NCBI GenBank assembly: GCA_964545365.1
Contig: CAZJFM010000001.1
Span: 30,948 to 94,947 of the forward strand
Source: an uncultured Candidatus Competibacteraceae bacterium
Lineage (GTDB): Bacteria; Bacteroidota; Bacteroidia; CAIKAF01
Direction of reading: 5' to 3'
Length of the DNA: 64,000 nt
Each line of letters opens with the position of its first letter. The first letter of the stretch is position 1. Of the stretch, positions 1 to 28,687 are shown one piece after another. The notes beneath the pieces were generated by a model that was given only the letters and a program-made list of their open reading frames with translations, was not told the origin of the DNA and did no database searches. Made by a program: the position numbers and the translations under genes.

Positions 1-803
1 ATCGAATGATTAATGATGACCCGGATCAGGGATTTAGAGTAGCGAGCATTGCTGTTTCGACCTTTAACGATGGCACCACCTCGTTTTTTCATCATTCCAT
101 AGGTGGGTATCATGGGGCCAAGATTCGTCGTTACCAAGATTTGGTAGAGCGGAGATTGGGTGGAGATTTGAGTGTATTGGTGAGTCGATTGCAGCGCGCC
201 AAAGATATAAGGGAGCAGAACGAGGCATTTAAAGGCTTGGCAGCTTTGAATATGTTGAATACTAAATACCTGCTTTATGATAAGCAAGCAGCGCCTTTTA
301 TGAACCTTCACAGATACGGTGCGGCTTGGTTGGCAGATTCGGTAGTTATGGTTACGGATGCCGATGCAGCCATAGGCGAAGTGATGCGGAGGGAGGATTT
401 GAAGCGAGTGGCGGTGGTTGAGGAATCCTTTTCTGAAGAAGTTGGCGGATTAAGCTTTGGCAAGGATAGCCTAGGAAGTGCAGAGCTACTGACATGGGCT
501 CCGGAGGAAGTAAAGTATAAGGTAAACCAAAGCAAAGAAGGCCTGGTGGTTTTTTCTGAGATATATTACGACAAAGGTTGGAAAGCAGAGATAGACGGAA
601 TGCCGGCAAGCCCGATACGTGTAAATTATGTACTTCGCGGCTTAAAGGTACCCGCGGGGAATCATGAGGTACGCTGGTATTTTTATCCGGAGACGGTGTA
701 TAGGTCTGCGGGTTACAGTAGGATAGGTAGTATAGTATTGTGGTTGTTGGTTATTGGAGGGGTGTTGGTTTTTTGGAGGGGAGTAAGTCGCTCCAATCAA
801 TAA
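1..803 (+). CDS. C-terminal part of a large polytopic membrane protein, YfhO-like (5' end lies outside the window)
   Basis: The frame is open to the window edge. It has a long soluble segment followed by a terminal hydrophobic helix (IGSIVLWLLVIGGVLVFW), an architecture typical of YfhO-family glycan-related membrane proteins. The family call is a weak by-eye call. Confidence 0.35.
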   Translation, partial: RMINDDPDQGFRVASIAVSTFNDGTTSFFHHSIGGYHGAKIRRYQDLVERRLGGDLSVLVSRLQRAKDIREQNEAFKGLAALNMLNTKYLLYDKQAAPFMNLHRYGAAWLADSVVMVTDADAAIGEVMRREDLKRVAVVEESFSEEVGGLSFGKDSLGSAELLTWAPEEVKYKVNQSKEGLVVFSEIYYDKGWKAEIDGMPASPIRVNYVLRGLKVPAGNHEVRWYFYPETVYRSAGYSRIGSIVLWLLVIGGVLVFWRGVSRSNQ

Positions 804-2214
804 GTTTTGACTTGAAAATTACTATAGCATTGATTAATGTAAATGCAAATGTTTTAAGAGACTGTATGAGAAAAAGATTCCCTTCCATATTAATTTTACT
901 TAAGGAAATTCCAGAAATTAATATTATAGAAACAACAGATACAAGCCTAAGGCTAATAGGGCTGAAATTAAACTTCTTAAAAAGTATCCAATACTTAGCA
1001 AAATTATAGATTACCATAGAAAGGAAGGTGGCAAAGGCGCCTCCTGTCATTCCGTAGATGGGTATAAAAGAATAGTTAAAAATAATAACGCAAATTCCAA
1101 ATGAGACCACTAAAAGTGCGTTGTATTTGTACAGTTTAGAAAACGAAATAATAGTTGTATTTATACCAGAAACTAAATCTGCAACTGCTGCTAAACCAAG
1201 CCAAAAAATAACAGGGGCAGCGGAGGTATATTCTGGAATTATCAAGAAAGCAATCGGCAAGTTTATAAGGATTAAGCCAAAGAATGCTCCTCCGATAATC
1301 CCCTGGTAAACGCATGATTTTCTATACACCTGCAATACTTTTACATGGTTATTATTAGCAAAGGACTCAGAAATAAATTGATTGCTTGAAATGTTAATTA
1401 CCCTACCAGGGACAAGAATAAAAGAACCAAAAAAGGCTCCGACAGAATAGACACCAGTGGCTTGGAGACCAATAAAGAGATTTACAAAAATAAGGTCAAC
1501 TGTAGTGACTAAGTAGTTAGACACACCAGATATTAGTGAAAAAAGACTTACAGAAAACATTTCTTTTTTCAAACTAGGTTTAATTTTTTTTAAGCTAAAG
1601 GGTTTCAGGCGAAGTCCTGATTTATATGAAAGAGTCAGCCAAAGGACAGGTGTCATTAAAAAGAGGATGAAAAAGTAATTGAATATGAAGAAAGACTTTG
1701 AAATAATATTTAAAAAGAAGAGAAGGGATATTAAAAGGATTGCAAGTCTTTGATAAAAATCACGTAATGATATACCAAGTTGACTCCTTTTTTTGCATCT
1801 TCCATAGTAATCCAACATATAGAATAAGCTAAAAGAAAACGTTAGTGGGAGAACTATTAAATAGTTGAATGGAACATCCTTTGGGACTGTTTGGTCATCC
1901 AAAAAGTACCCATAAGTAAATGTATAGAGACTACTTACTACTAAAAATCCGATGAGGGAGATAGTTAATGAAAAGAGTAAGAAGCCATTTTCATTTTTTT
2001 CTTTTTCAAAATAAGGAAAGAACCTAGGGCTTAAAAAACCTAGACTAGATACAAAAGCTGCGGCCGTAGAAATTCTTACAACTAGGTTTAGGAAACCTAT
2101 TTCCTCTTTCTCTAATAAATTAGGGAGGGCAATTCCTGAAATAATAAAGCCTAAGAATACGCCACTTAAGGCATAGCCAATTCCATAAACTGATTGGCGC
2201 TTAATTGATGCCAT
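751..2214 (-). CDS. wzx: Polysaccharide (O-antigen/capsule) flippase, Wzx/MOP superfamily
   Basis: 487 aa with about 12 hydrophobic helices throughout. It sits at the edge of a sugar-biosynthesis operon, and its composition and length are typical of Wzx. Confidence 0.65.
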   Translation of the reverse strand: MASIKRQSVYGIGYALSGVFLGFIISGIALPNLLEKEEIGFLNLVVRISTAAAFVSSLGFLSPRFFPYFEKEKNENGFLLFSLTISLIGFLVVSSLYTFTYGYFLDDQTVPKDVPFNYLIVLPLTFSFSLFYMLDYYGRCKKRSQLGISLRDFYQRLAILLISLLFFLNIISKSFFIFNYFFILFLMTPVLWLTLSYKSGLRLKPFSLKKIKPSLKKEMFSVSLFSLISGVSNYLVTTVDLIFVNLFIGLQATGVYSVGAFFGSFILVPGRVINISSNQFISESFANNNHVKVLQVYRKSCVYQGIIGGAFFGLILINLPIAFLIIPEYTSAAPVIFWLGLAAVADLVSGINTTIISFSKLYKYNALLVVSFGICVIIFNYSFIPIYGMTGGAFATFLSMVIYNFAKYWILFKKFNFSPISLRLVSVVSIILISGISLSKINMEGNLFLIQSLKTFAFTLINAIVIFKSKLIDWSDLLPSKKPTPLQ

Positions 2215-2227
2215 TCAAGAAACCTTT

Positions 2228-3214
2228 TTAAAGGTAAAAGTCTCTTTGTCCAAAATGATTTCGATTTTTTTCATCTGTGTACCAATCAATAGTTTCCTTA
2301 ATTCCTTGATCAAAGGAAATCGATGGCACCCAGTCTGTAAGGAATACAAGTTTCTTGTTACATCCCAAAAGTCTCCTCACTTCACTCTTTGACGGCCTCA
2401 TTCTTTTCTGATCTTGCTTGATTTTGGCGGCAGGATTTATTTTGTTAATAAGGGCTTTAGCGATTTCTCCAATGGAAATTTCTTGACCTGTGGCAATATT
2501 AACGGTTTGCCCTACGCATTTTGCTTCTTCTGAAATTACTTTAAAACCCTCTGCCGTATCTTTTACGTATACCATGTCTCTAGTTGGACTTAAATCACCC
2601 AACTCAATAACTTCCTTTCCATTTAATAATTGTAGAATAATTGTAGGAATAATTGCACGTGGAGATTGCCTTGGTCCATAAGTGTTAAATGGTCTAACTA
2701 TGGTAATTGGAAGATCGAAAGAGAGGTTATAAGATTCTGCAAGCTTGTCAGCACCAATTTTAGAGGCAGAATAGGGGGATTGTCCTTGTAAGGGGTGTTC
2801 TTCATTAATAGGTGTGTATCGAGCTGTTCCGTAAACCTCTGATGTTGATGTTATTATAGTGTTTAGTATGTTGTTGATGCGTGCTGCTTCTAAGATATTG
2901 TATGTACCCATTAAGTTTGTCTCAATGTAGCTTTTTGAGCTTTTATAACTGTAAGGAATGCTTATTAGTGCAGCTAAATGGTATATTTTTTGGAACCCTT
3001 TTGTCTGTTTTCTAATAAACTCTCCATCTCTGACATCTCCAAACAAAATATTAGTTTCGTTAAGAACCTCTTGAGAGAGGTTTTTTAACCAACCTTCTTG
3101 GCCAAATGAATTGTATTGAACAAGCGCGGTAACCTCATATCCAGACCTGACAAGTTTTTCCGTCAAGTGGCTACCAATAAAACCCTCACTTCCTGTAATA
3201 AATACTTTTTGCAC
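2228..3214 (-). CDS. NAD-dependent sugar epimerase/dehydratase (extended SDR; 4,6-dehydratase-like)
   Basis: Rossmann motif VFITGSEGFIGSHL and a YxxxK-type catalytic region. A GTG at 3214 giving MQKVFITG is the most plausible start; the upstream ATG at 3298 would overlap the preceding gene by 112 bp. Confidence 0.75.
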   Translation of the reverse strand: MQKVFITGSEGFIGSHLTEKLVRSGYEVTALVQYNSFGQEGWLKNLSQEVLNETNILFGDVRDGEFIRKQTKGFQKIYHLAALISIPYSYKSSKSYIETNLMGTYNILEAARINNILNTIITSTSEVYGTARYTPINEEHPLQGQSPYSASKIGADKLAESYNLSFDLPITIVRPFNTYGPRQSPRAIIPTIILQLLNGKEVIELGDLSPTRDMVYVKDTAEGFKVISEEAKCVGQTVNIATGQEISIGEIAKALINKINPAAKIKQDQKRMRPSKSEVRRLLGCNKKLVFLTDWVPSISFDQGIKETIDWYTDEKNRNHFGQRDFYL

Positions 3215-4130
3215 GACTGTTGATTTGTTTGCATAAAAATAAGGAGTATTTTCTTGCACCTCGTATATTAAGATGATCAATGTCGCCAAAATAATCACTC
3301 GTGTAAGAGCTTTTTGAAGTTTGGAAATAAGAAAACCTTTGAAATGGGTTAAAAAAGCTTACCATTTCTCCTTTATACTTTTCGTATCTGTTTAAATATA
3401 TGGCATTGAAATATTGCCCCAGCTTATTATTTGGAGGCTCATGAATGAAAACAAATTTTTCCTGCTTCAGGAGTCTGTATATGATCCCGCAGAAACCTTT
3501 AAAACTTAACCAATCAAATTCTGCGTTACGATAAACGAGATATGCATTATTTTTTTCGCTATTATAAATTTTTGTTTTTGGAATAAAACCTTTGTAAATG
3601 TGACTATTTTGTTTTCCATTTTTTGGCTCATATTTAAAAAAATATGAAAAAGCTTTTCTATAACTTTTAAAATAACTAGGTAATAGCTGCGAGAATGATA
3701 CGCTTCCGTTCTGAAACATGAAAAAATGGGTTTTAGGATTCTTAAGGTGTCTGTGAATAGGAAATAATTCAAAGTTGTCGGCGCCAACTGTAAACATCTC
3801 AGGCCCAATATTTATAATTAGAGTTTCTGGCTTTAGTCGCTGTTGTAGGCTCAAATCCTTTATTAAAAGATCTATTGTTTCTGGACCAGCAGAAGGTAGG
3901 CCTAGATTGAACGATTTCATTTCTGTTAATGAGTCAAGAATTTCTGGAATTACGCCATTGTAAGTATGACTGTTACCTAGCAAAATTGTATTGTAAAACT
4001 CTTGTCTTGTTGAATATTGTTTAATTCTCTCACTATGTTCATTATTACTTAATGAATCAAATCGTGATACTATGCTAATAGGAGCAAGTCCAATAATTAA
4101 TTTAATAAAAAAGAGATATTTCTTTTTCAT
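3186..4130 (-). CDS. Secreted SGNH-like (AlgX/AlgJ-like) partner of an MBOAT O-acyltransferase
   Basis: N-terminal signal peptide (MKKKYLFFIKLIIGLAPISIVS), a GNSHT motif resembling the SGNH block I, and a position immediately downstream of an MBOAT gene, as in AlgI/AlgJ and PatA/PatB pairs. Confidence 0.35.
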   Translation of the reverse strand: MKKKYLFFIKLIIGLAPISIVSRFDSLSNNEHSERIKQYSTRQEFYNTILLGNSHTYNGVIPEILDSLTEMKSFNLGLPSAGPETIDLLIKDLSLQQRLKPETLIINIGPEMFTVGADNFELFPIHRHLKNPKTHFFMFQNGSVSFSQLLPSYFKSYRKAFSYFFKYEPKNGKQNSHIYKGFIPKTKIYNSEKNNAYLVYRNAEFDWLSFKGFCGIIYRLLKQEKFVFIHEPPNNKLGQYFNAIYLNRYEKYKGEMVSFFNPFQRFSYFQTSKSSYTSDYFGDIDHLNIRGARKYSLFLCKQINSRAKSIYYRK

Positions 4131-4135
4131 CTTTC

Positions 4136-5530
4136 TTAAAATTGGAAGTATATAAAATGTTGTTTATCTGTCGCTGAAAATAAGAAAATTAATTGTAGTC
4201 CGATAATGAATATACCAAATCGGAGAAGGTGATGGCGAATAAAAACTTTTTTAATATCCCTTTTTTGAAAAAGTGTTTCTACTATTAAGAATATGCATAG
4301 CAAGAAGAAGTATTTCGTTAAATTTTGGATATTAAAATCCACTACACTAGGTACTTTTGTGAATAAAGACTTAATTGTAAAGATGGCATCATTAAATGTA
4401 TTTGATCTAAAAAATATCCATGCTATTGACACATTTATAAATGTGAAGGTCAATCCTAAAGCCTTAGGTAGATAAAATAAAAATTTTGTAGCTTCTCTTT
4501 TAGAAAAGAAATGATAAGATATTATTAGTATGCCATGGAAAGCACCCCATATTATAAAGTTCCAGGATGCTCCGTGCCATAAACCGCTTATAATAAATAC
4601 AAGGAACAAATTTCTTAGCCATAATAACTTTGAACCCCTATTTCCTCCTAAAGGTATGTACAAGTAATCCCTAAACCAAGTACTTAATGAAATATGCCAT
4701 TTGTCCCAAAACGCCTTTATTGATGTTGCTCCATAAGGTTGCTTAAAGTTTATCATAAGCTTTATTCCTAGAATTTTAGCTATCCCAATGGCAATGTCTG
4801 AATAGCCGCTAAAATCATAGTAAATCTGAAATGTGAAAGCGATAATAGCAAATAGTGTAAAAGCGGAATTTTCTGTATTGGGGTTGTTAAAGTAATAATC
4901 AGATACAGTTGCTAAATTATCTGCGATAACCATTTTTTTAACAAAACCCCATGTTGCGATTTCTATTCCCCTGAAGGCTCTGTTTACAGAGAAGGAGTAA
5001 TTAATTCTTAACTGGTGTAAAATGTTTTGCGGTCTTTCAATTGGTCCTGCTACTAGTTGAGGGAAGAACATGACATAAAGAGCAAACCTAAGGATTGACT
5101 TTTCTGGAGAAATTCTACCGTAATAAATTTCAAAAATGTAGCTTAGAGATTGAAATACATGAAATGATAAGCCGATTGGTAATATTATATTTAGATAGCT
5201 TATTTCGGCGTTTGGAACTATGTAGTTGTAATTTGAAATAATAAAGTTGGCATATTTAAAGTAGGTGAGCAGGCCTAAATTTGTGCCTAAACTAAGAAAT
5301 AGGTACAATTTTTTTCTTTTGTTTGATTTCGTTTCATGTAAGAGTCTTCCTAAAGCGAAGTCTATAATAATTGTTGCAGCAAGAATTATAATGTATTCCG
5401 CTTTAAAAAACATATAGAAAAACGCTGAGCAACCTAATAAGAATGTCATTCTTATATTTTGCCGCAGCAAGAAATAACCTATGGTAGCAATAGGCCAAAA
5501 TATTATGAATTCTAATGAGTTGAAAATCAT
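4136..5530 (-). CDS. Membrane-bound O-acyltransferase (MBOAT; AlgI/DltB family)
   Basis: Polytopic membrane protein with the MBOAT signature around the conserved His (WHISLSTWFRDYLYIPLGGNRGS). The likely start MIFNSLEFIIFWP at 5530 overlaps the stop of the upstream gene. Confidence 0.8.
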   Translation of the reverse strand: MIFNSLEFIIFWPIATIGYFLLRQNIRMTFLLGCSAFFYMFFKAEYIIILAATIIIDFALGRLLHETKSNKRKKLYLFLSLGTNLGLLTYFKYANFIISNYNYIVPNAEISYLNIILPIGLSFHVFQSLSYIFEIYYGRISPEKSILRFALYVMFFPQLVAGPIERPQNILHQLRINYSFSVNRAFRGIEIATWGFVKKMVIADNLATVSDYYFNNPNTENSAFTLFAIIAFTFQIYYDFSGYSDIAIGIAKILGIKLMINFKQPYGATSIKAFWDKWHISLSTWFRDYLYIPLGGNRGSKLLWLRNLFLVFIISGLWHGASWNFIIWGAFHGILIISYHFFSKREATKFLFYLPKALGLTFTFINVSIAWIFFRSNTFNDAIFTIKSLFTKVPSVVDFNIQNLTKYFFLLCIFLIVETLFQKRDIKKVFIRHHLLRFGIFIIGLQLIFLFSATDKQHFIYFQF

Positions 5531-6477
5531 TAAGACCCGTTTCTTAGCATTGTGCAAACCTGCAAAAGATTCTTTTGATTTTCAATAGTTGCTAAATGTT
5601 TATTTAATTGGTTGGAGTCAAAAAAAGCCTGAATCATATTAAATAGACCTGGTTTAAGGCTTTTTGGCTCTTGATATTTTTCGGGGATTTCAATAGTTTC
5701 TTTTGTTAAACATTCCCTAATCTGTGATTGCAAAGTTTCAATTGGGCTTAGATGCCATGATCCTCCATCGTACTTTATTTCTATAGACCATCTTCCTGCG
5801 CTTCTCCAGTCAGAGTTAAAAACAAAAGGGGTATCTTTTTCAGTTTTACCAGAGCCGGTGAAACCTACAGGGTTGTGCCAACTATAATGACCCGAGGTAT
5901 ATGCTTTGAGTTCCTTTGGATAGCCGATTAAAAAAAATACTAAATCTAAAATATGAGACGAATTTGCTTCTAACCAATTTGCTAATATGAATTTAGAACT
6001 CTGTGCAGCAAGAACACGAGAACTCCATTCTGTAAAATCAAATGAGCAACTTATTATTCCGTTGTTATTGATTAATTCTTTAGTGTATAGGGCGCTAGGT
6101 AAAAATCGTCTGTTGTAGGCAACAAATATCCTATCTGGATACGTAAGTTTTCCGATAGATGAAATATTAAGTATTGCAGGTTTCTCTGCCAATATTTTTA
6201 TTTTAGAATTCAAAGCTTTATCTAATAATATTAGATGACTTTCTATTTTGTCAACTGGTGTTGCTAAAATTAAGTGTGTGTGGGTGTTTAGAACGTCAAT
6301 ATATTGTTCAAATCCTCCAGAGCTTACCTTGACCTTAAACTCGTTGGAAATGTTTTCACAATTTTGAGAGCTATTCCCAAATACCTCAATAGTACAATTT
6401 GGGTAAGCGTATAAAATTGCTTTTATGTACTCTTTTGTCATTCTACCTGCTCCAATGATAGCTACTTTCATAATCAT
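5530..6477 (-). CDS. Gfo/Idh/MocA-family NAD(P)-dependent sugar oxidoreductase (paralog 1)
   Basis: N-terminal Rossmann motif IIGAGRM and the family EKP motif (ILAEKPAIL). Confidence 0.7.
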   Translation of the reverse strand: MIMKVAIIGAGRMTKEYIKAILYAYPNCTIEVFGNSSQNCENISNEFKVKVSSGGFEQYIDVLNTHTHLILATPVDKIESHLILLDKALNSKIKILAEKPAILNISSIGKLTYPDRIFVAYNRRFLPSALYTKELINNNGIISCSFDFTEWSSRVLAAQSSKFILANWLEANSSHILDLVFFLIGYPKELKAYTSGHYSWHNPVGFTGSGKTEKDTPFVFNSDWRSAGRWSIEIKYDGGSWHLSPIETLQSQIRECLTKETIEIPEKYQEPKSLKPGLFNMIQAFFDSNQLNKHLATIENQKNLLQVCTMLRNGS

Positions 6478-7457
6478 GTTATTTTTAAGGTCAGGTTAGG
6501 ATTACAAGACAAAAATGTGTCCGTAAAAACCTCAATTAGGGCAGTATGTTGTTTTAATGATTCACCTAATGTCGGCAATGAGTTTATTGTTTTATAATCT
6601 TTGAACTCTTTCCAATAATTTGATGTTAATGTACTTTGATAGGGCAGTGTTATATTTTTGGGAATTAAATTTGCTAAATAGGATTCTTTTTTTGATAATA
6701 ACTTAACTTTTTTAGTTGTTTCATTAATTTCCATGACAAAAGTACCGTAGTCTAGATGGATGAGTAGGTTGCAAGATTCCTCCTTACTTATAAACTTGAA
6801 GTTTGTACTACCAACAAAGCCCTGAATCCATCCGGTGGCCTCGTAGAAACCTTCTCTTTTTATTGATTTGAACCAATTTAGATTAGCATCAGCAACTAAC
6901 ACCTTATCATCGATACCATTGTTTGCAAGAAAGCAGATGAGATCTAAAAAGTGTATAGAGTTACTTGCCATGTTCCAATTAGAACCTGTTACCAGGACTT
7001 TTTTCAAAGAATATTCGGTTGTTAGATACTTTAATTTCTTGTAAATAGGATAAGCTCTTCTTGGTGTATTAACAAAAGCATTGGTATTATTACTAATCGT
7101 TTGCCACTCTGTGATGTTGTCTAAAGAGTCGAAAAGCAGTTTTTCAATTATAATTACATCCGGCGAAGTTTTTCTTATTAGTTCCTGACAGGTTTTCAAC
7201 CTGCTTGTAGAATCTGTTGCGATTATTGCAAAATCAATAAAAACGGTTGGAATAGATTGTAATGGTATGACTGAAAATGACTCATTGGGATTTTCAGATT
7301 CTAATAGTTCTGAAACCTTTTCAGCTCTTTGAATATCGAGATCTATTAAATAGAGTGTGCTACATGTATTAAGTAGGGATTGAGCATGTCGATAACCCAT
7401 ATTCCCAGCTCCTACTATACAGATACTAGTTGTTTTATCTGATTGAATATCCTCCAT
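6474..7457 (-). CDS. Gfo/Idh/MocA-like oxidoreductase (paralog 2, divergent)
   Basis: Rossmann motif ICIVGAGNMGYRHAQ and an EK(L) motif (IIIEKLLFD). It overlaps the neighbours on both sides by 4-23 bp. Confidence 0.55.
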   Translation of the reverse strand: MEDIQSDKTTSICIVGAGNMGYRHAQSLLNTCSTLYLIDLDIQRAEKVSELLESENPNESFSVIPLQSIPTVFIDFAIIATDSTSRLKTCQELIRKTSPDVIIIEKLLFDSLDNITEWQTISNNTNAFVNTPRRAYPIYKKLKYLTTEYSLKKVLVTGSNWNMASNSIHFLDLICFLANNGIDDKVLVADANLNWFKSIKREGFYEATGWIQGFVGSTNFKFISKEESCNLLIHLDYGTFVMEINETTKKVKLLSKKESYLANLIPKNITLPYQSTLTSNYWKEFKDYKTINSLPTLGESLKQHTALIEVFTDTFLSCNPNLTLKIT

Positions 7458-8181
7458 CCACTATTAAATTATGTCCTGTTATATAACTGCTTTCTTCTGA
7501 TAGTAAGAATATTGCAGGGGCAGCTGCTTCATATGGAGTAGCTAACCTGCCTAAGGGTGTTATATTAGAGTAGCGTGCCACAAATTTAGGATTTTGCTTA
7601 TCCAAAACACCGCCGGGGCTTACGCAATTAAATCGAATATTTTTCTGCCCATAAATGGATGCTAAATATTTTGTAGCGTTTATAATCCCCGCCTTGATTG
7701 GAGCATATGGAAATGGAACACCCATATTTAGGTCATTATACAAGTTGGGGTTTGGACCAAGAAATCCATAAATAGAGCTATAATTTACCAAAGAAGCCTT
7801 TTGTTTCTTATTCGAAAAATAATCACCAAAAATTTTTGATATCCACGTGTAGCTATTGAGATGAAGGTTAAGGTTCTCAGAAAAAGAACCGTAGGAAATA
7901 TCTGAAAGCGAAGCTCCCCAATCTTTAGTTCTTGGATAGCTACAATTTACTACACCAGCAAGCTTAACTTCTGAAAAGTTTGTATGCAGGAAATCCTCAA
8001 AATTTTGGAATTGGGTTATGTCAAAAACTATTGAATGTAAGTTGGGATGGGTAATAGCGCTTATTTCCAAATCTATACAAATTACAGAATGGTTCTTTGA
8101 AAGAAGAATATTGGTGATTTCTTTCCCGATTAGGCCATTTCCTCCAATTACTGCAAAAGTTGATGTGTTAGATTTCTCCAT
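7435..8181 (-). CDS. Short-chain dehydrogenase/reductase (SDR)
   Basis: TGxxxGxG-type motif (AVIGGNGLIGKEI) and a length and C-terminal region typical of classical SDRs. Confidence 0.7.
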   Translation of the reverse strand: MEKSNTSTFAVIGGNGLIGKEITNILLSKNHSVICIDLEISAITHPNLHSIVFDITQFQNFEDFLHTNFSEVKLAGVVNCSYPRTKDWGASLSDISYGSFSENLNLHLNSYTWISKIFGDYFSNKKQKASLVNYSSIYGFLGPNPNLYNDLNMGVPFPYAPIKAGIINATKYLASIYGQKNIRFNCVSPGGVLDKQNPKFVARYSNITPLGRLATPYEAAAPAIFLLSEESSYITGHNLIVDGGYSIR

Positions 8182-9055
8182 TGCAAACCTTTAAAACCTT
8201 TATGCCGTCAAAAATAGTATTATTTGACTTCTGTTTTTTTGTAATAATATTTAGAAAGGTTGTCCATTGGCTAACATAAGTATCATTTATTGTTTCATTG
8301 AAAACTTCTATAAGAGTATCATTTAACTCTAATTGACCAGTTAATAAGTTAGCCTTTATTTGCCCTTTAGTACCCAAAAGCTTCAATTCCCTTTTATTTG
8401 TTTTGCTAAGGTAGCTTAAATTAATATTGACAGTCATTTTGTCGTGGTATAATAGATGATAAGAGGCAGTTTCAAACGAGTTAATTTCTAGCTCACCCCA
8501 GTTTTCTAACGATGACATTACTTTGCAAGGCATTCCAAATAGGAAATAAGCTAGGTCTATTTCATGTATCAGGTCTAAATGGACTCCACCACCTTTATTG
8601 CTATTGGCTGAATATGATTCCTTAAAATTTCCACTTCTCCATTCTGGTAAATAACTAAGACACTCGAAATGCGCAGACCAAATCTTACCAATAACCCCTG
8701 ACTCCAGAAACTCTTTCAACTTTTGTATTATTTGAAGGTATCGAAGGTTACAACCCATCAATGTGTTGATGTTTTGTAAACATTTTATTTGTTTGCGTGT
8801 GAAATTTGGAACGGTGTGGGAAACTGGCTTTTCAATAAATAAGTTATTACTTAAATGAAGGTTATCAAGGATATGTTTGGTATGGAGGTAGGTGGGGGAA
8901 CAAATTAAAACAGCATCATAAAAGTCTGTTTGACTTATCTGTTCCTTTTCACTCCTTGAGTCAATAATTTCAAAGGAAATTTTGGGATTTAAGCTTTTAA
9001 GTATTTCCATATGCTTTCGGGCTATCGACCCGTTTCCAATTGATTTAAACTTCAT
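8168..9055 (-). CDS. Gfo/Idh/MocA-family oxidoreductase (paralog 3)
   Basis: N-terminal dinucleotide-binding region and the EKP motif (FIEKPVSH). Confidence 0.7.
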   Translation of the reverse strand: MKFKSIGNGSIARKHMEILKSLNPKISFEIIDSRSEKEQISQTDFYDAVLICSPTYLHTKHILDNLHLSNNLFIEKPVSHTVPNFTRKQIKCLQNINTLMGCNLRYLQIIQKLKEFLESGVIGKIWSAHFECLSYLPEWRSGNFKESYSANSNKGGGVHLDLIHEIDLAYFLFGMPCKVMSSLENWGELEINSFETASYHLLYHDKMTVNINLSYLSKTNKRELKLLGTKGQIKANLLTGQLELNDTLIEVFNETINDTYVSQWTTFLNIITKKQKSNNTIFDGIKVLKVCNGEI

Positions 9056-9767
9056 ACCTTTTTTCTAGCTTAAATTTTACATAGAGATAATCTTCAATTG
9101 AGTCAATGTCAATGCATTTAGTTTTTTGGACTTTAATCGAAAAATTTGCATCGGTAACTTTTCTGTAGCCCATTTCAAAGAATTTTTTTCTGTATATATA
9201 AAATGCTGCGCTCAATTCATATACATTGGGAGCATCTTGTCGCCGTAAATAGCCATCTGAATCTTTGCAAATTTTGTAAGTGTTTTCTGGCCCCTTCTCA
9301 ACCATATTAAAATATGGGTTTTTAGTTGCGTGATTTACGCTCATAATTAGATCAAGGGATTTATCAGAGTCCAAAAGGTTTAAGGCGGATATTATATCTT
9401 CAACCTCGCGTTCAGGTGCAGTAACATCAAGGTCAATAACTGTATCGAAGATTAAGTTAGATTCTGCCTCACAGTATTGAATTAGATCATTTATTGCTTC
9501 AATTTTGCCTGACTGGTCGGAGGCTAGTTTTTGAGGCCTTGATCTCAGGAAATCTACACTACCATTGCCTTTATTTAGTATTTTGTCGTAGTCACTAGAA
9601 AGGCCAATTAACACGTTAATTTTAGAGGTTTTTATTCTTTGGGCTAACTCTTTAGCATGATTTATCGTAATAACAACTAATGGCTTTTCATTGATAAGTA
9701 GTAAATTTTTATTGGGAATACCCTTGGACCCTCCTCGAGCACAAATAGTTATTAATATATTTCTCAT
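9045..9767 (-). CDS. CMP-nonulosonic acid synthetase (acylneuraminate cytidylyltransferase family; NeuA/LegF/PseF-like)
   Basis: N-terminal ICARGGSKGIPNKNL motif, characteristic of CMP-NeuAc/CMP-KDO-type cytidylyltransferases. Confidence 0.8.
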   Translation of the reverse strand: MRNILITICARGGSKGIPNKNLLLINEKPLVVITINHAKELAQRIKTSKINVLIGLSSDYDKILNKGNGSVDFLRSRPQKLASDQSGKIEAINDLIQYCEAESNLIFDTVIDLDVTAPEREVEDIISALNLLDSDKSLDLIMSVNHATKNPYFNMVEKGPENTYKICKDSDGYLRRQDAPNVYELSAAFYIYRKKFFEMGYRKVTDANFSIKVQKTKCIDIDSIEDYLYVKFKLEKRYEV

Positions 9768-9773
9768 AATAAG

Positions 9774-10835
9774 TTATTTGAAGTTTACAGAATCAATTAT
9801 TTGATTAGCTTTATCATAGTCCATTGGATTCCCAATGTCTAGCCAGAAGTCTTTCATTTCGAATGGCGCAACTTTAAAACCATTTGAAAGACATTGCTCA
9901 ATTAATTCGGTAGCATCTAAGTACTTAAAGCTGTTAGCAAGTTTCCTGACTCTTTCATTCATTAAGTAGATCCCCGCATTTGCCAGATATGTGTAAGTTG
10001 GCTTTTCGGATAAGCTGGTAATTAATCCGTTTTCTAAATCAAAAATCGCATATGGAACTTTTGTAGTGTAGGGAATAGCTGCGACTACTAAATCTAACCC
10101 TTTTTCCTTAAAGCAATCATAGAAGCCCCTGAAATCCAAATTGGTTAATAAATCACTATTCATTAAAATAGTGTCTTCATAATTTAGCTTTGCATCAATA
10201 AGGTTCAAAGCTCCTGCTGTTCCTAATGGCTCCTCTTCCTTAATAAAGTTAAAATGTATATTTCCCTTGTACCTTTCTCTTAAGGATTTGATGATTTTGT
10301 CTCCTAAATACCTGATTGATATATTATAATTATCTATCCCATGTTTATTCAACCAATCTATGTTATGACAAATAATTGGTTTTTCGCCAACTTTAAGTAA
10401 GGGCTTAGGTGTGGTTAATGTATAAGGGCGCAAGCGTGATCCTTTGCCTCCTGCCATTAATAGAACGTTTACAGGCAATATCGTTTTTGTAACATTTAAA
10501 TCAATAAGTTTAACTAAAAGCTTTTCATTGTTCAATAAAGGTATAATAGTTATGTTTCTTTTCTTATAAGTTTCAAAGTCATTATAATAACTCTTTGAGC
10601 TAGTTTTAAGAAAGGCAAATTCTTTCTTCATAAAATCTTGTACTTTATCTTCCAGATTAAGGCCTGAAATTAAGCCTCTCCTTAAATCACCATCCGTTAT
10701 TGACCCGATAATTTTGTTATTTTGACTATCCTTAACAAAGAGTACTAAAGCTTTCTTATTTGAGATCCTTTCTAATTGAATTAAGGCTTCTCTTGCCGTT
10801 CGATTATTCCCTATAATATGATTATCAACAACCAT
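9774..10835 (-). CDS. CBS-domain sugar-phosphate nucleotidyltransferase (PtmE-like, GDP-sugar branch of legionaminic acid synthesis)
   Basis: A CBS pair (IGSITDGDLRRGL) is followed by the NTP-transferase motif LLMAGGKGSRLRPYT. This architecture is known from Campylobacter PtmE. Confidence 0.7.
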   Translation of the reverse strand: MVVDNHIIGNNRTAREALIQLERISNKKALVLFVKDSQNNKIIGSITDGDLRRGLISGLNLEDKVQDFMKKEFAFLKTSSKSYYNDFETYKKRNITIIPLLNNEKLLVKLIDLNVTKTILPVNVLLMAGGKGSRLRPYTLTTPKPLLKVGEKPIICHNIDWLNKHGIDNYNISIRYLGDKIIKSLRERYKGNIHFNFIKEEEPLGTAGALNLIDAKLNYEDTILMNSDLLTNLDFRGFYDCFKEKGLDLVVAAIPYTTKVPYAIFDLENGLITSLSEKPTYTYLANAGIYLMNERVRKLANSFKYLDATELIEQCLSNGFKVAPFEMKDFWLDIGNPMDYDKANQIIDSVNFK

Positions 10836-11901
10836 GGTGTATTTTTTTTAGGACTTCAATTATTTTTTTACTCGCACATTTGTCACCGTATGGGTGAGAA
10901 TTCATACTAAGACATGTGGGTGAATTCATTAGTTTTTTAACGGTATTTTGGATGAGCGTGTGGTTAAACGGTAAGTTTATGACATTTTGTCCAAAAGGTC
11001 TTCCTTTTTGCCTAATACCTACGTTAATTACCCATTTATTAAAGGCTCCTGCTTCGATTATTCCACTTGAACTATTTCCAATGATTAAGGTTGCTTTTAA
11101 GAACTCTTCCGGATACTTAGAACCTAAGTTGGGTATTATTTGAACATGTTTTGGCCATTTAATTTTTTCGATAGTTTCAATGATTTCTTCTCGACCATAA
11201 TCAGAGTTCGGATAGGTTATGATACCTTTATAACCACTTTGTAAAATTGCTTCAAAGAAATCATTAATTTCTTCTTTTGTTTGATTAATATATGGGTGTA
11301 AAGTTGCAATAAAGCACTTTTCAACATCTCTTTTTTCTTGTGCTTGAGTGGCTATTCTATAGTTGTTAAGATACTCAATACCCAATGAACCAACTGGGTA
11401 AATATTCTCATTACTTCCTGTAATACAAGATATTCGTTTCCCAAACTCTTTTGTGCTTGGAAAATGTAAGCTTGATAACCTAGTTATGAAATCTCTATAA
11501 TAGTTGTCATACGATCCTGATGTAATTTCTCCTCCGTGAATATGAGCGATTTCAAAATTGGCTAATTTAAGTGCTAATGATGCAGCAAACATTTCGTATC
11601 GATCACCAAGTGAAATGATAATATCCCAATGTTTTGATTTAGTCTGGAGAAACTCATTGAACTTATTTAAAAAGAATGCAATCTTTAGGGAGTCAGTTTT
11701 TGAATCTAATTCATCATGCTTGGTGTGTATTGTTTGTAAGCAAATAGTTTTAAATTTTATATTTTCCCAACCTTCGAAAAGAAAATGATCTCCAAATAGA
11801 ATGATTGAGGCGTTTATCCATTCTTCATTCTCAAGGGATTTAAGTAATGGAGTATAAATGTTTATGTCGGCCCTGGATGAGCTTAATATTCCTATATTCA
11901 T
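10825..11901 (-). CDS. neuC: UDP-N-acetylglucosamine 2-epimerase, hydrolysing (NeuC/LegG family)
   Basis: MNIGILSSSRADINIYTPLL, GDRYEMFAA and HIHGGE motifs typical of hydrolysing 2-epimerases. Confidence 0.8.
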   Translation of the reverse strand: MNIGILSSSRADINIYTPLLKSLENEEWINASIILFGDHFLFEGWENIKFKTICLQTIHTKHDELDSKTDSLKIAFFLNKFNEFLQTKSKHWDIIISLGDRYEMFAASLALKLANFEIAHIHGGEITSGSYDNYYRDFITRLSSLHFPSTKEFGKRISCITGSNENIYPVGSLGIEYLNNYRIATQAQEKRDVEKCFIATLHPYINQTKEEINDFFEAILQSGYKGIITYPNSDYGREEIIETIEKIKWPKHVQIIPNLGSKYPEEFLKATLIIGNSSSGIIEAGAFNKWVINVGIRQKGRPFGQNVINLPFNHTLIQNTVKKLMNSPTCLSMNSHPYGDKCASKKIIEVLKKIHHGC

Positions 11902-12911
11902 TTAAATAGAGTTAGTTTTACGGGGGCATATTTCAAAACATCTTGTTTTAGAGTTTTGCCAATTAGCGACCAATAAAGTGTTGGTGAAACTCCATTCTGG
12001 GGACGACTGACTAGAATGTCAGTTTCAGTAATAATCTTTCCTTTAGGTATAGACTTTGAAAAGTAAAGGCCTTTTCTTGCATGGTTTATATTTTCTAATT
12101 CTGTTGGACTTGGTTTAATTGTTTGATTGCCCATTAATTGTTCTGCTAATCGAATTTTAGAGACGTAATCTTTTAATTCATTCGGCTCTAAAGATGATTT
12201 ATGGTCTGGTCCTTTTAATTCTCTGCTAAGGGTAAAGTGCTTTTCAACAATTGAAATGCCAATTGCAACAGCCATCATTACACTGTAATAACCTTGTGTA
12301 TGGTCAGACAAACCTACCTTGCAGGGAAGTATTTCTTTTAACCTAAATATTTGGGAAAGATTGACTTCACTTGACGGAGTTGGATAAGCCGTTGTGCATT
12401 GCAAAAACGTAGCTTTACTCGGTGCGAATTTCAATTTGTTAAACAGAAAGTCTGAGGTTTCAATTATTTCTTTTTCTGAGGTCATTCCGGTTGATAAAAT
12501 TAAACCAATGTTTTTTTCTGCTGCATGTTTTATGAGGTGAAAATTATTGAAATCTCCTGAAGATAGTTTGACTTTTTTAACGCCTATTGAATTGAGGAAA
12601 TGAAGTGAATCAATGTCAAACGGAGTTGATATGAATTCAATGTTTATGTTTTCACAATGCCTTTTAATTTCTTCAAAATCTTCAAATTTGAGTTCTAGAC
12701 TTTTTAAAAGTTTAAATTGCGAACTTCGCCCTGTTTCTTTCTTTTGATAGGGTGCTGATAAGGCGTCTTTCAGGACTAAATTTTCTGTTTTAAAAGTTTG
12801 AAATTTCACGGCATCCGACCCGGCCTCCTTTGCATAGTCAACTAGTTTTAAGGCGTTACTTAAACTCCCATTATGGTTGATACCTGCTTCGGCAATTACA
12901 AATGTGTTCAT
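11898..12911 (-). CDS. neuB: N-acetylneuraminate/legionaminate synthase (NeuB/LegI family)
   Basis: N-terminal FVIAEAGINHNGSL...AVKFQTF TIM-barrel signature of NeuB-family aldolase-type synthases. Confidence 0.85.
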   Translation of the reverse strand: MNTFVIAEAGINHNGSLSNALKLVDYAKEAGSDAVKFQTFKTENLVLKDALSAPYQKKETGRSSQFKLLKSLELKFEDFEEIKRHCENINIEFISTPFDIDSLHFLNSIGVKKVKLSSGDFNNFHLIKHAAEKNIGLILSTGMTSEKEIIETSDFLFNKLKFAPSKATFLQCTTAYPTPSSEVNLSQIFRLKEILPCKVGLSDHTQGYYSVMMAVAIGISIVEKHFTLSRELKGPDHKSSLEPNELKDYVSKIRLAEQLMGNQTIKPSPTELENINHARKGLYFSKSIPKGKIITETDILVSRPQNGVSPTLYWSLIGKTLKQDVLKYAPVKLTLFK

Positions 12912-12920
12912 TTTTTACTT

Positions 12921-14087
12921 TTATCTTTTCACTGAACTTGGTAAATTCAATGCTACTTTTGATAACTGCATTGTGTTACTCAATTCTTGGAAGATTAGAC
13001 TCTTTTCTTTGACATACTTAAATGTATGCGCTGGTTGCCAAGGAGGGCGGACCATAATATTTGCATCGATACATGTTTTTATATTGTGTGCTCTTTCTCT
13101 TTCATTTTCAAAAATAACGGTGTTGAGCCAGTAATTTGAAATTGTTCCTTCTTTCGCAGTTAAAACATAGCCTGGGAATTTTATTGCTTTAAGAGTTTCT
13201 AAGTAATATTTATGTAACTTCTGTTTTTCAGAAATTAGAAATGGTAGTTTTTTTAGTTGTGCTACCAATAATGAGGCATTTAAATTGGGAAGTCTGTAAT
13301 TATAGCCTAGTTGATCATGATAATACTCAATTGGATCTGGAAGTTTTGCTTGGTTTGACAAATGTTTGATTTTCTTGGCTGTTTCTTCATCCTTAGTTAA
13401 TACCATTCCCCCTGAACCCGATGTAATGATTTTGTTACCGTTAAATGATAGAACGCCCATATCTCCAATAGTTCCTAGGTGTTGAGTGCCAATTTTTGAT
13501 CCTAATGATTCTGCTGCATCTTCGATGAGCTTAATATTGTATTTATGACATAAATCCCTAATAAGGAAAGCGTCTCCAGGTATGCCAAAGCTATACATTG
13601 GGATGCAAGCTTTAATTATTTTATTTGTGGTTATGTGTTTTGTACCCTCTTCTGTAATAATGCATTCGGTTTCTAAGAATTCTTGTAGCTTTTCGGGTGA
13701 AAGGCATAAATTCTTCCAATCAATGTCAATAAACAATGGTGTAGCCTTGCAGTATAAGATAGAGTTAATCGTTGCAATAAATGTGAAGCTTTGAGTGAGT
13801 ACAATATCACCTTCGGCAATATTCCCAGCAATCAATGATAAGTGTAAAGCGGCTGTACCAGAGTAGACTGGTACTGCAAATGTTACATCGCAATACGTAG
13901 ATAACATTGTAGCTGTCAGCTCCACATTGGGTCCAACGGAGGATACATAAGTAGAGTTAATACAATTTATCAACTCATCCTCCTCGTCTTGGTTGAAGTA
14001 GGGTTCATGGAGTAGAATCTGTTTATCCTCGCTAACCTGAAACCAATCTCTTATTACTTTAGGAAGTTTTATATTGTTAGATTCCAT
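12921..14087 (-). CDS. DegT/DnrJ/EryC1/StrS-family PLP-dependent sugar aminotransferase (LegC/PseC-like)
   Basis: Fold-type I aminotransferase pattern with the PLP-lysine region SFNGNKIITSG and DAAESLGS. Confidence 0.85.
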   Translation of the reverse strand: MESNNIKLPKVIRDWFQVSEDKQILLHEPYFNQDEEDELINCINSTYVSSVGPNVELTATMLSTYCDVTFAVPVYSGTAALHLSLIAGNIAEGDIVLTQSFTFIATINSILYCKATPLFIDIDWKNLCLSPEKLQEFLETECIITEEGTKHITTNKIIKACIPMYSFGIPGDAFLIRDLCHKYNIKLIEDAAESLGSKIGTQHLGTIGDMGVLSFNGNKIITSGSGGMVLTKDEETAKKIKHLSNQAKLPDPIEYYHDQLGYNYRLPNLNASLLVAQLKKLPFLISEKQKLHKYYLETLKAIKFPGYVLTAKEGTISNYWLNTVIFENERERAHNIKTCIDANIMVRPPWQPAHTFKYVKEKSLIFQELSNTMQLSKVALNLPSSVKR

Positions 14088-14977
14088 TTTTCATCTTTTG
14101 TGTAAGCATCTATATAAGAGTTCTGTGTTGTATTGATAACTACTGCCCCCTTCTTTTGAATGAGAATTTTTAAATCATGGTATCCTTTAAAGGTCAAATA
14201 AAGTTTTTTAAATTGCTCGTGAAGCAAAAAGTCAGTCCCATCAAGCTTTTCAACTGTGTTGTTTTTTGATTGCCAAAATGCATGTTTGTAGGATGTTCTT
14301 AATCTGTTATTGTCCAAAGAAATGTGTTTATGCCAGTCGTGATCAGTTCCAAATAGAAAGATTTGCTTAAACTTAAGCATAAGACTTAGGTAAATCGCAG
14401 CAACTAGTGTGTTATGAATACGTGGTGTGCCCAATCCCTTGTTCCAGAAATAATAGTTTATTATTTCTGACCCATCTACAGGTACTTGGTTAAAGAATTT
14501 TATTTCTAGATTCGGATTTTGCGAAATCTCTTTAATAAAGGTTTTTTTAGTGGCAAGCTGTGGAAGAAAAATATACATTTTCCAAGTCACCTTCATTAGG
14601 TTTTCGATAGTTTCCTTTTGGAGTTTTTGATATTTATCACTTACATTATCGGACCAGTATTCGTTGGCCTGTAACAAATGGATTTCAGGCTTCCATCTCC
14701 AAAACGCATCCGCTTTATAGAATTGATTAATTGTTAGTAACTTTACTTTATGGCGATTCTCGTTTATTTTATTTTCTTGGTGTTTAAGTGAGGGCCCATT
14801 TCCCAATATGAATAATGGGCTTTGTGAGTGTTCAAACTCTTTACTTAGCTTTTCATAATTGTGCTTTGCGTATTTTTGCTTTGCTAAATACAAAACTTTT
14901 AAAGCACTCAAAAAATCCTTGTGAACCATCTTTATCGCCATCAAAACAAAATTAGAAAGAATGTTTGGAAGGTTCAT
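14069..14977 (-). CDS. GT42-like sialyltransferase / nonulosonic-acid transferase (CstII-like)
   Basis: GNGPSLK followed by INQFY matches the Campylobacter CstII N-terminal motifs (AGNGPSLK...CNQFYFED). A later IFLFGTDHDW resembles the CstII catalytic-His region. The gene sits next to the CMP-sugar pathway. Confidence 0.5.
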   Translation of the reverse strand: MNLPNILSNFVLMAIKMVHKDFLSALKVLYLAKQKYAKHNYEKLSKEFEHSQSPLFILGNGPSLKHQENKINENRHKVKLLTINQFYKADAFWRWKPEIHLLQANEYWSDNVSDKYQKLQKETIENLMKVTWKMYIFLPQLATKKTFIKEISQNPNLEIKFFNQVPVDGSEIINYYFWNKGLGTPRIHNTLVAAIYLSLMLKFKQIFLFGTDHDWHKHISLDNNRLRTSYKHAFWQSKNNTVEKLDGTDFLLHEQFKKLYLTFKGYHDLKILIQKKGAVVINTTQNSYIDAYTKDEKWNLTI

Positions 14978-14983
14978 GTATTG

Positions 14984-17797: not shown

Positions 17798-18531
17798 TGA
17801 AGATAATTGCTGTAGATGATGAGCAGCTGGCGCTTACTCAGCTGAGTAAAGTTTTTGAACTTGTTGACGTACAGGTAGTAGAACTTGATCTTGAATCCAA
17901 TCCCTTAAAAGCGATATCTAGGATAAAATCAAATAGCTATGATATAGCTTTATTGGATATCGAGATTGGTGCTGTATCAGGTTTTGACCTGATGGAAGAA
18001 ATTAAGGGAGATGTGAAAAAGATCGTTATAACCACAGCTTATGAGAATTATGCGATAAGGGCTTTACGTGAAAGAGTCTATGATTACCTTTTAAAACCTG
18101 TTGAGATAGATGATTTGAACGGGATGCTAAACAACTATTTAGAAGAAACCGCCCCAAATTCTTCTAAATCAAAAGGTAAACAAAGGATGATTTGTACGAT
18201 ACCTGTTCCTAGTGGAAAACTGTCTATTCCCTCTCTAAGCGGTTTTCGACTTATAGACTTAATGGATATCACCTATATTGAATCAGAGAACACTTATTCA
18301 AAACTTCATTTTAAAGATGGAGGCAGTCTTTGGGTTACAAAACACCTCAAGGAGTTTGATAGTGAGCTGTCAAACAATGGATTTTTTCGAATTCACCAAT
18401 CTTTCTTAATAAACCTCGCTTATGTTACAGGTTTCAACAGGGTTGAAGGTGCTAAAGTCGAGCTTTTAAATAGTATTCAATTGCCTGTAGCTCGCCGCAA
18501 GAAAGACGAGTTTCTTTCCTGCTTTAAATGA
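17797..18531 (+). CDS. LytTR-family two-component response regulator
   Basis: Receiver domain (MKIIAVDDEQLAL...LLDIEIG) plus a C-terminal LytTR DNA-binding domain. The start overlaps the kinase stop in a TAATG junction. Confidence 0.85.
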   Translation: MKIIAVDDEQLALTQLSKVFELVDVQVVELDLESNPLKAISRIKSNSYDIALLDIEIGAVSGFDLMEEIKGDVKKIVITTAYENYAIRALRERVYDYLLKPVEIDDLNGMLNNYLEETAPNSSKSKGKQRMICTIPVPSGKLSIPSLSGFRLIDLMDITYIESENTYSKLHFKDGGSLWVTKHLKEFDSELSNNGFFRIHQSFLINLAYVTGFNRVEGAKVELLNSIQLPVARRKKDEFLSCFK

Positions 18532-18592
18532 CCAAATTCTTCTTGGTTGAGGAGTTACTTCAATCTTTCAATTGCTTTTGATAATTTTGAAT

Positions 18593-28159: not shown

Positions 28160-28687
28160 TCAAGGCTTTGGAAACCAATCGGCATACATGGGGTAGCGAT
28201 CTGCAGTCCCGGAAATTAAACGCTCCCTTTCTTCCGTGCTTACTTTTCGTATGGGCCGTGCCGGGATTCCCGCATACAAGGTGTTCTTTTCCAGTATTTT
28301 ACCTTCTGAAACTAAGGCTCCCGCTCCAATGATGCAGCCGGAAGGTACCACGGCATGATCCATAACAATAGCTCCCATCCCTATCAATACTTCATCCTCG
28401 ATGGTGCAGCCGTGGATTAAAGCTCTATGTCCAATGGATACTCGGTGCCCTACCTCGGTAGCTGCCTTTTGGTAGGTGGCATGTATAATTGCGCCGTCTT
28501 GAATGTTGACTTCGTCCCCTATGCGAATGTGGTGCACATCGCCTCGAATTACGGCCTGAAACCAAACCGTGCAGCGATTTCCTAAAACTACATCGCCCAC
28601 TATGGTGGCGTTTGGAGCAATCCAACAGTCGCTTCCCCATTGGGGGCTTTGTCCATTTACCGGCAATATGAGCGGTTTCTGATTCAT
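28160..28687 (-). CDS. Gamma-class carbonic anhydrase-family / left-handed beta-helix hexapeptide protein
   Basis: Hexapeptide repeats and the conserved metal-ligand His region (IGHRALIHGCTIED), of the PaaY/YrdA type. Confidence 0.8.
   Translation of the reverse strand: MNQKPLILPVNGQSPQWGSDCWIAPNATIVGDVVLGNRCTVWFQAVIRGDVHHIRIGDEVNIQDGAIIHATYQKAATEVGHRVSIGHRALIHGCTIEDEVLIGMGAIVMDHAVVPSGCIIGAGALVSEGKILEKNTLYAGIPARPIRKVSTEERERLISGTADRYPMYADWFPKP

Follow-up and report, generated by a model that had tools for sequence, protein, structure and literature searches.

Two redox gene modules at the end of a legionaminic-acid-type operon in an uncultured Bacteroidota bacterium, one of a known type and one apparently undescribed

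Four oxidoreductase genes in a nonulosonic acid operon

The 64,000-nucleotide stretch analysed here (the window) is part of contig CAZJFM010000001.1 (positions 30,948 to 94,947, assembly GCA_964545365.1) of an uncultured Candidatus Competibacteraceae bacterium placed within the Bacteroidota in the GTDB lineage, and it carries a nonulosonic acid (NulO) operon that occupies the minus strand from approximately 14977 to 751. Four oxidoreductase genes of this operon (5530-9055, the quartet) are transcribed after the gene for a cytidine monophosphate (CMP)-sugar synthetase (9045-9767) and before that for a membrane-bound O-acyltransferase (MBOAT, 4136-5557). In order of transcription, all on the minus strand, they encode GfoD (8168-9055, 295 amino acids), a canonical Gfo/Idh/MocA protein like PtmF, ElaA and the Gfo protein of Escherichia coli O108; a classical short-chain dehydrogenase/reductase (SDR, 7435-8181, 248 amino acids) like PtmA, ElaC and the "oxidoreductase" of E. 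coli O108; the divergent GfoB (6474-7457, 327 amino acids); and GfoA (5530-6477, 315 amino acids), which belongs to a large unnamed family and is the second gene of a GfoB-GfoA pair. The open reading frames (ORFs) overlap by 14 nucleotides (SDR/GfoD), 23 nucleotides (GfoB/SDR) and 4 nucleotides (GfoA/GfoB), and the ORF list agrees exactly with an earlier note on this DNA, which had described four consecutive overlapping genes between the MBOAT gene and the synthetase gene. That note took them for one expanded redox set, but our comparison with other genomes indicates that the quartet is composed of two conserved gene modules that co-occur in many NulO clusters.

The assignment of three genes to the Gfo/Idh/MocA superfamily and one to the SDRs was upheld by Pfam, by predicted folds and by the translations, which contain the EKP and EKL motifs (AEKPAIL, IEKLLFD and IEKPVSH) quoted in the note. 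Pseudogenes, degenerate or otherwise, and chance ORFs were ruled out because the reading frames are intact, a fully syntenic operon 95% identical to that of the window is present in GCA_030427255.1, and the cofactor and catalytic motifs are kept by orthologues in dozens of genomes.

GfoA, GfoB and GfoD belong to the same superfamily, of which they are ancient and distant members. The Pfam model PF01408 (cut-off 24 bits) gave 31.1 bits for GfoA, 29.2 for GfoD and 22.2, just below the cut-off, for GfoB. For GfoD the N-terminal, C-terminal and C3 GFO_IDH_MocA domains were all above threshold (PF22725 and PF02894 among them), only the N-terminal model passed for GfoA, and the Pfam C-terminal domain models detected neither GfoA nor GfoB. 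Pairwise BLASTP among the three proteins returned no significant full-length similarity, a single 19-residue motif being common to GfoA and GfoB, yet profile-profile comparison of orthologue profiles (hhalign) gave probabilities of 98.8-98.9% and E ~1e-17 for all three pairs, and the predicted folds agree with this distant kinship. The AlphaFold2 model of GfoA (predicted local distance difference test score, pLDDT, 92.2) reached Foldseek template modelling (TM) scores of 0.7-0.8 against Gfo/Idh/MocA structures in the PDB, and that of GfoB (pLDDT 87.3) reached 0.55-0.68 with a best E of 1.7e-12, the PDB matches listed for both models being almost all of the Gfo/Idh/MocA fold; the Foldseek neighbours of the two models include the sialic-acid-active RgNanOx and YjhC. 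The "three paralogs" of the earlier note are therefore correct as to common superfamily and not as to close paralogy, recent paralogy being ruled out by the BLASTP result.

The active-site residues separate GfoD from the other two proteins. GfoD has G7, G9 and E75-K76-P77 and retains the canonical D-x-x-x-H (D160...H164), whereas GfoA (G9, G11, E98-K99-P100) and GfoB (G16, G18, G21, E105-K106 followed by Leu in place of Pro) carry N-S-x-H-x-x-D, in which the His is kept and there is no Asp at position -4. The non-canonical motif common to GfoA and GfoB can be written W-x(2-3)-[AS]-N-S-x-H-x-L-D-L. Generic members of the superfamily (WlbA/WbpB, GnnA, inositol dehydrogenase, RgNanOx/YjhC) are similar to these proteins in the two-domain fold, the Rossmann GxGxxG and the catalytic Lys of E-K-(P), but have D-x-x-x-H where GfoA and GfoB have N-S-x-H-x-x-D and are further set apart by the family-specific motifs FxFTEW and SAGRW of GfoA and RH-Q and VNxPRR of GfoB. 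The invariant residues of the GfoA family are G9, G11, E98-K99-P100, YNRR, FxFTE, N172-S173-x-H175-x-x-D178, SxGRW and KPG, and the conserved residues of the GfoB family are GxGxxG, D39, E105-K106, R134, N166, H169 and D172.

Distribution of the two modules

When one genome per prokaryotic species was scanned with a GfoA profile, at least 584 genomes contained GfoA relatives, among them genomes of Bacteroidota, SAR11, Leptospira, Firmicutes, Thaumarchaeota and methanogens; relatives were also present on some viral or phage contigs. The best 80 loci were compared through their six-frame ORFs, labelled with the window's own proteins. GfoB adjoins GfoA in 75 of them, contig ends interrupt three others, and the remaining two hold both genes apart; the GfoB stop and the GfoA start overlap or lie at most 20 nucleotides apart in 70 of 72 loci, and in three loci from Firmicutes the order is reversed with the genes still adjacent. 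A total of 912 word-sharing homologues was obtained for GfoA, and GfoB has 2514 family representatives at 50% identity and 12 word-sharing homologues. Protein searches with GfoA, GfoB and GfoD returned generic names only ("predicted dehydrogenase", "Gfo/Idh/MocA family oxidoreductase"), and tblastn of plasmids yielded three matches, annotated as "hypothetical protein" or not at all. Campylobacter was not among the carriers of GfoB or GfoA within the best 80 loci and 120 homologues inspected, and blastn with Serratia-like DNA, a weak test, found no match for the pair in E. coli.

Gene context was counted in the 47 loci with full 10-kb flanks, 37 of which contain at least three core NulO genes. 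This supports the functional link to the NulO operon proposed in the earlier note and mostly rejects the possibility, also raised there, that the quartet commonly flanks unrelated sugar pathways, NulO genes being absent from six of the 47.

Module 1 comprises the CMP-synthetase, GfoD and the SDR (7435-9767) and is a trio of known type. In the E. coli O108 cluster the Gfo, cytidylyltransferase and "oxidoreductase" genes stand in a row after a PtmE-like gene. GfoD is 31% identical to the O108 Gfo protein over its full length (E 4e-39), with Lys76 of EKP and His164 of D-x-x-x-H aligned, and the SDR is 35% identical to that of the O108 trio (E 4e-53), with the YxxxK pair aligned. The window synthetase shares 31% identity (E 2e-26) with the cytidylyltransferase of the O108 trio versus 28% (E 7e-14) with the stand-alone LegF-type enzyme of another E. 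coli cluster of legionaminic acid (Leg) type, in which PtmE is present and both oxidoreductases are absent. Related synthetases likewise had a median bit score of 151 where Gfo and SDR genes are adjacent and 59 where they are not, so that, judged by sequence, the window enzyme belongs to the synthetase subtype associated with Gfo and SDR genes. The SDR has the motifs GGNGLIG (GGxGxIG), SSIYG and Y-A-P-I-K (S...YxxxK) and matched adh_short_C2 (PF13561) with 92.6 bits; its best NCBIfam matches, PRK09186 (210.3 bits, cut-off 255) and FlagModPtmA NF050062 (130.4 bits, cut-off 350), are both below their equivalog cut-offs and place it, by score, as a relative of the PRK09186 and PtmA families and not as an equivalog. 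At least 1001 homologues of GfoD were found; a PDB sequence search with GfoD returned no ElaA-like entry, and the best PDB sequence match of the SDR is the unannotated 6uh2.

The trio was seen in 15 related loci besides E. coli O108, and GfoD and SDR are both present in 21 of the 80 loci, so that the GfoB-GfoA pair often occurs without them. The quartet is best regarded as two modules that are independent of each other. The exact order CMP-synthetase/GfoD/SDR/GfoB/GfoA recurs in 12 of the 80 related loci, from Flavobacterium, Pedobacter, Chitinophaga, Crocinitomicaceae, Prolixibacteraceae, Ignavibacteriales and a candidate phyla radiation (CPR) bacterium. The arrangement, which the earlier note had not recognised from described pathways, thus divides into a trio of known type and a widespread pair, and the window locus itself is ordinary, adding one more case to an arrangement already common in sequence databases. 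What retains interest is the pair: no description of it was found in the literature searched (Leg with Gfo, 4-epilegionaminic acid, and ela/aci), within which coverage of the key papers was incomplete, and GfoB-GfoA appears to be a conserved and widespread module of NulO clusters that is as yet undescribed and, seemingly, uncharacterised.

The neighbours of the pair vary among loci. An SGNH/GDSL gene lies directly 3' of GfoA in 20 loci, a slot taken in the window by the MBOAT gene and a partner of unassigned family. In Pedobacter fastidiosus (L069, 5198-11622) the order is Gfo, CMP-transferase, class-III aminotransferase, SDR, GfoB, GfoA and GDSL, and, with an aminotransferase in its redox module, this organism may well add a further amino group to its nonulosonate. 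In Tenacibaculum skagerrakense (L008, 6321-9035), the CMP-synthetase and GfoB are separated by HisF-like and HisH-like genes and one for a 395-residue protein of unknown family; this set presumably resembles the acetamidino-forming WbpG/HisH/HisF, and a homologue of approximately 397 residues of the 395-residue protein is found directly upstream of GfoB in 11 loci. GfoA relatives also adjoin NeuB and LegC-like genes on five IMG/VR contigs classed as viral (L088-L092); a recognisable GfoB is present on four of these contigs and an SDR on four, an arrangement that recalls the prophage-borne epaAB of Acinetobacter. The loci with GfoB-GfoA and no NulO gene within 10 kb are L071, L013, L023, L027, L035 and L039; in L071, a Muribaculaceae metagenome-assembled genome, a GfoB-GfoA-GDSL set (8994-11636) is found among BspA-like leucine-rich repeat proteins, a tRNA synthetase and a peptidase. 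The substrate of the pair in such loci may be a sugar whose biosynthetic genes lie in another part of the genome, or one that the cell imports.

The surrounding operon and its neighbours

Upstream of the quartet, the minus-strand operon encodes an MptE-like/DUF115 protein (14069-14977; PF01973, 36.1 bits), a LegC-family aminotransferase (12921-14087; TIGR04181, 418 bits for a cut-off of 420), a NeuB/LegI-type synthase (11898-12911; TIGR03569, 376 bits for a cut-off of 399.65), a hydrolysing NeuC/LegG 2-epimerase (10825-11901; TIGR03568, 248.5 bits for a cut-off of 235.9), a PtmE-like protein with CBS and nucleotidyltransferase domains (9774-10835; PF00483, 109.9 bits) and the CMP-nonulosonate synthetase introduced above, which is ElaB/LegF-like (PF02348 CTP_transf_3, 37 bits; TIGR03584 PseF, 69.7 bits, below the model cut-off). 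Downstream, on the same strand, follow the MBOAT (PF03062, 88.8 bits), a protein of 314 amino acids with an N-terminal hydrophobic segment and no assigned family (3186-4130), a LegB-like nucleoside diphosphate (NDP)-sugar 4,6-dehydratase (2228-3298; PF16363, 230.6 bits) and a polytopic membrane protein of 487 amino acids (751-2214); the 314- and 487-residue proteins had no Pfam match even at E<=5. LegC, NeuB/LegI, NeuC/LegG, PtmE-like, LegF-like and LegB-like genes are present in one cluster, and the operon appears to be a legionaminic-acid-type cluster of the guanosine diphosphate (GDP) route. An N-acetyltransferase of LegH/PglD type was searched across the 64-kb window and not found, a weak hexapeptide-repeat match (E 1.7e-4) at 28163-28771 being the only candidate, and 30 related loci do carry such a gene, usually located between LegC and NeuB.

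One related locus (L001) has the same order of downstream genes (751-5557) as the window, and in another (L018) the MBOAT and its 314-residue partner are also side by side. The two proteins may form an O-acylation system with an extracytoplasmic partner, by analogy with AlgI/AlgJ or DltB/DltD. Divergent from the operon (14921-21211) lie genes for a 958-residue sensor with a His_kinase domain (PF06580), a LytTR response regulator and an 879-residue CHU_C protein; the two-component system likewise adjoins the operon in L001, and the CHU_C type IX secretion signal of the 879-residue protein indicates a Bacteroidota host. The guanine-plus-cytosine (GC) content of the operon is 32-35%, compared with 45-50% in the part of the window past approximately 24 kb, and the NulO operon with its neighbours (1-22000) forms a low-GC island (0.32-0.39) compared with 0.44-0.50 in the rest of the window, which fits a horizontally exchanged surface-glycan locus.

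Proposed functions of the two modules

On balance, and with a confidence that is only slightly above even, we favour a reading in which the quartet represents two separate two-enzyme redox modules at the end of the GDP-route Leg operon, the first performing an Ela-type epimerisation at C8 and the second a further redox step or epimerisation. Following the published Ela model, the synthetase would make the CMP-sugar, the GfoD-type enzyme would oxidise the C8 hydroxyl to a ketone by means of its Lys/His pair, and the SDR would return the hydride to the opposite face to give the 8-epimer. GfoB and GfoA, acting as a complex or as consecutive enzymes, could carry out a second NAD(P)-dependent oxidation and reduction, and hence an epimerisation, on the same nonulosonate, so that the operon would yield a Leg-derived sugar with changes at two positions and, probably, O-acylation.

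The C8 chemistry that we infer for module 1 derives from a 2026 study that reported structures of ElaA (Gfo), ElaB (synthetase) and ElaC (SDR) of Acinetobacter baumannii, each of which is required for the KL49 capsule, and proposed from genetics, structures and docking that ElaA oxidises C8 of CMP-Leg5,7Ac2 and that ElaC reduces the 8-ketone to the epimer (PMC13656337). The same three components adjoin one another in the Leg clusters of A. baumannii KL49, E. coli O108/O61 and Vibrio vulnificus YJ016, and the O antigen of E. coli O108 contains 8-epilegionaminic acid (8eLeg5Ac7Ac) (PMC7685785). The likeness of the window trio to Ela was assessed by trio composition, published residues and the E. 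coli O108 sequences, the O108 proteins standing for Ela; in the alignments, K91/H181 of ElaA correspond to K90/H180 of the O108 protein and K76/H164 of GfoD, and most of the signature tyrosines of ElaC are kept in the SDR. The window differs in gene order, which is synthetase-Gfo-SDR as opposed to the Gfo-synthetase-SDR of Ela-type clusters, and in the length of GfoD (295 amino acids, compared with 320 in the O108 Gfo protein and 323 in ElaA).

A second redox step by GfoB and GfoA is proposed by analogy with elaABC, aciABCD and epaAB, in which an oxidase and a reductase turn a CMP-nonulosonate into another stereoisomer, the products being 8-epilegionaminic, acinetaminic and 8-epipseudaminic acid, respectively (PMC13656337, PMC5595891, PMC12053666). 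These precedents also make reasonable the idea of the earlier note that extra redox enzymes tailor the sugar. The aciABCD and epaAB genes of A. baumannii embody the same concept, in which a complete NulO pathway is supplemented with dehydrogenase or reductase genes, and aciABCD adds four genes, as does the redox set of the window (PMC5595891, PMC9676051, PMC12053666). By their descriptions, however, the families are different from those of the window, epaA being a cytidylyltransferase-aldo/keto-reductase fusion and AciB, AciE and EpaB being SDRs, and the aci genes were reported from A. baumannii only (PMC5595891), whereas GfoB and GfoA are spread across phyla. The earlier note assumed that one or two redox enzymes are the most that described clusters require; this does not hold, given that the Campylobacter Leg genes include LegB, PtmA and PtmF and that the aci module has four genes, of which AciB at least is an SDR.

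The cofactor signatures of the pair differ. In GfoB, strand beta-2 ends in an Asp that does not vary within the family, whereas GfoA usually has G-R-[GS] there. By the general rules for Rossmann folds, an Asp at this position is the usual determinant of NAD, and G-R-[GS] is NADP-like. A contrast between an NAD-dependent GfoB and an NADP-dependent GfoA, if borne out, would fit a division of labour between oxidase and reductase.

Several observations weigh against the two-module epimerisation scheme. The PtmF/PtmB(LegF)/PtmA set of Campylobacter jejuni/C. coli and Plesiomonas shigelloides is the same trio, adjoins PtmE and belongs to a GDP-route Leg cluster (PMC4481668), but its published role is precursor supply, PtmF and PtmA being placed in the segment that leads from fructose-6-phosphate to GDP-N-acetylglucosamine (GDP-GlcNAc), after Schoenhofen 2009 (summarised in PMC4481668 and the SugarBase preprint). 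The sugar of Campylobacter is Leg and not 8eLeg, so that the trio does not prove 8-epimerisation; the window SDR, for its part, is far below the NCBIfam PtmA equivalog cut-off (130 versus 350), which separates it from the Campylobacter enzyme. Since the operon has no LegH-type gene, the exact sugar is uncertain, and the N-acyl group on the 4-amino intermediate is unexplained within the window. Moreover, the NAD/NADP split rests on sequence rules, and the Arg of the family consensus is replaced by Asn in the window GfoA. Finally, six of the 47 full-flank loci carry GfoB-GfoA without any NulO gene within 10 kb.

The conflict between the two published assignments of the trio leads to an alternative in which GfoD and the SDR supply precursor, converting fructose-6-phosphate to glucosamine-6-phosphate that feeds PtmE, and only GfoB and GfoA, if anything, modify the finished sugar. 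The placement of PtmA and PtmF just described is in line with it, as are the PtmE-like gene immediately upstream in the window and the match of the SDR to the PtmA model. We nevertheless consider it unlikely, given that the NAD(P) and catalytic motifs of GfoD and the SDR are intact and do not suit the chemistry of an amidotransferase or isomerase, that the trio is present in the 8eLeg-producing E. coli O108 and missing from the E. coli Leg-type cluster that retains PtmE, that the CMP-synthetase subtype co-varies with Gfo and SDR, and that the crystal structures of ElaA and ElaC, with docking, fit CMP-Leg (PMC13656337). As far as these comparisons go, an epimerase role for module 1 is favoured over precursor supply because the cofactor and catalytic residues are of dehydrogenase type and because, in E. 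coli, the presence of the trio coincides with that of the 8-epi sugar.

For module 2, a non-epimerising role is conceivable, GfoB and GfoA making or consuming a keto intermediate for derivatisation (amination, acyl transfer or acyl removal), or acting at the hexose-nucleotide stage like the C3 dehydrogenases WlbA and GnnA. The first version could draw on the SGNH/GDSL gene that directly follows GfoA in 20 loci, the MBOAT of the window and the class-III aminotransferase in the neighbouring redox module of the Pedobacter locus L069, and the Foldseek neighbours include the UDP-sugar 3-dehydrogenases GnnA and WlbA as well as KanD2 and GenD2, aminoglycoside dehydrogenases whose products pass to transaminases. 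This structural likeness is, however, at the level of the generic fold (10-16% identity), and the simpler account of two conserved oxidoreductases whose cofactor signatures look opposite is that one oxidises and the other then reduces. Besides, LegC is the sole aminotransferase of the window operon, which does not favour the transamination that the earlier note had suggested here, reasonable as that idea is for L069, and we regard a non-epimerising role as rather improbable. It is more improbable still, to the point that we give it little credence, that GfoB accompanies GfoA as a pseudo-enzyme with no catalytic activity or that the pair has no specific connection with NulOs. GfoB does evolve fast, with 12 word-sharing homologues and a score below the Pfam threshold, and has EK[LVI] in place of EKP, and loci such as the Muribaculaceae L071 lack NulO genes nearby; but GfoB orthologues keep GxGxxG, D39, K106, H169 and D172 with little or no variation, and the NulO genes that accompany the pair in 37 of the 47 full-flank loci are found beside it on viral contigs as well.

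Of the favoured two-module scheme, the gene identities, folds, conserved motifs, synteny and distribution are observed, and the substrates, the chemistry at C8 and any position on the sugar at which GfoB and GfoA would act are inferred. It is possible, although we hold the proposal tentatively and would not be surprised to see it fail, that GfoB-GfoA is an undescribed and widespread two-subunit NAD(P) oxidoreductase that makes a stereoisomer (for example, the 4-epimer) or a keto or derivatised form of CMP-Leg-type sugars and that, combined with an Ela-type trio, would give a doubly modified NulO. In the literature searched, no gene assigned to 4-epilegionaminic acid was found, genes being proposed there only for the 8-epi and acinetaminic isomers.

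NulOs decorate flagella, capsules, lipopolysaccharides and S-layers, both in pathogens and in environmental microbes that are abundant, and how the immune system and phages recognise these sugars depends on their stereochemistry. The GfoB-GfoA pair, found beside Leg genes in hundreds of species, is an obvious candidate for one NulO step that has yet to be assigned, and its assignment, if true, would improve the prediction of sugar type from genomes.

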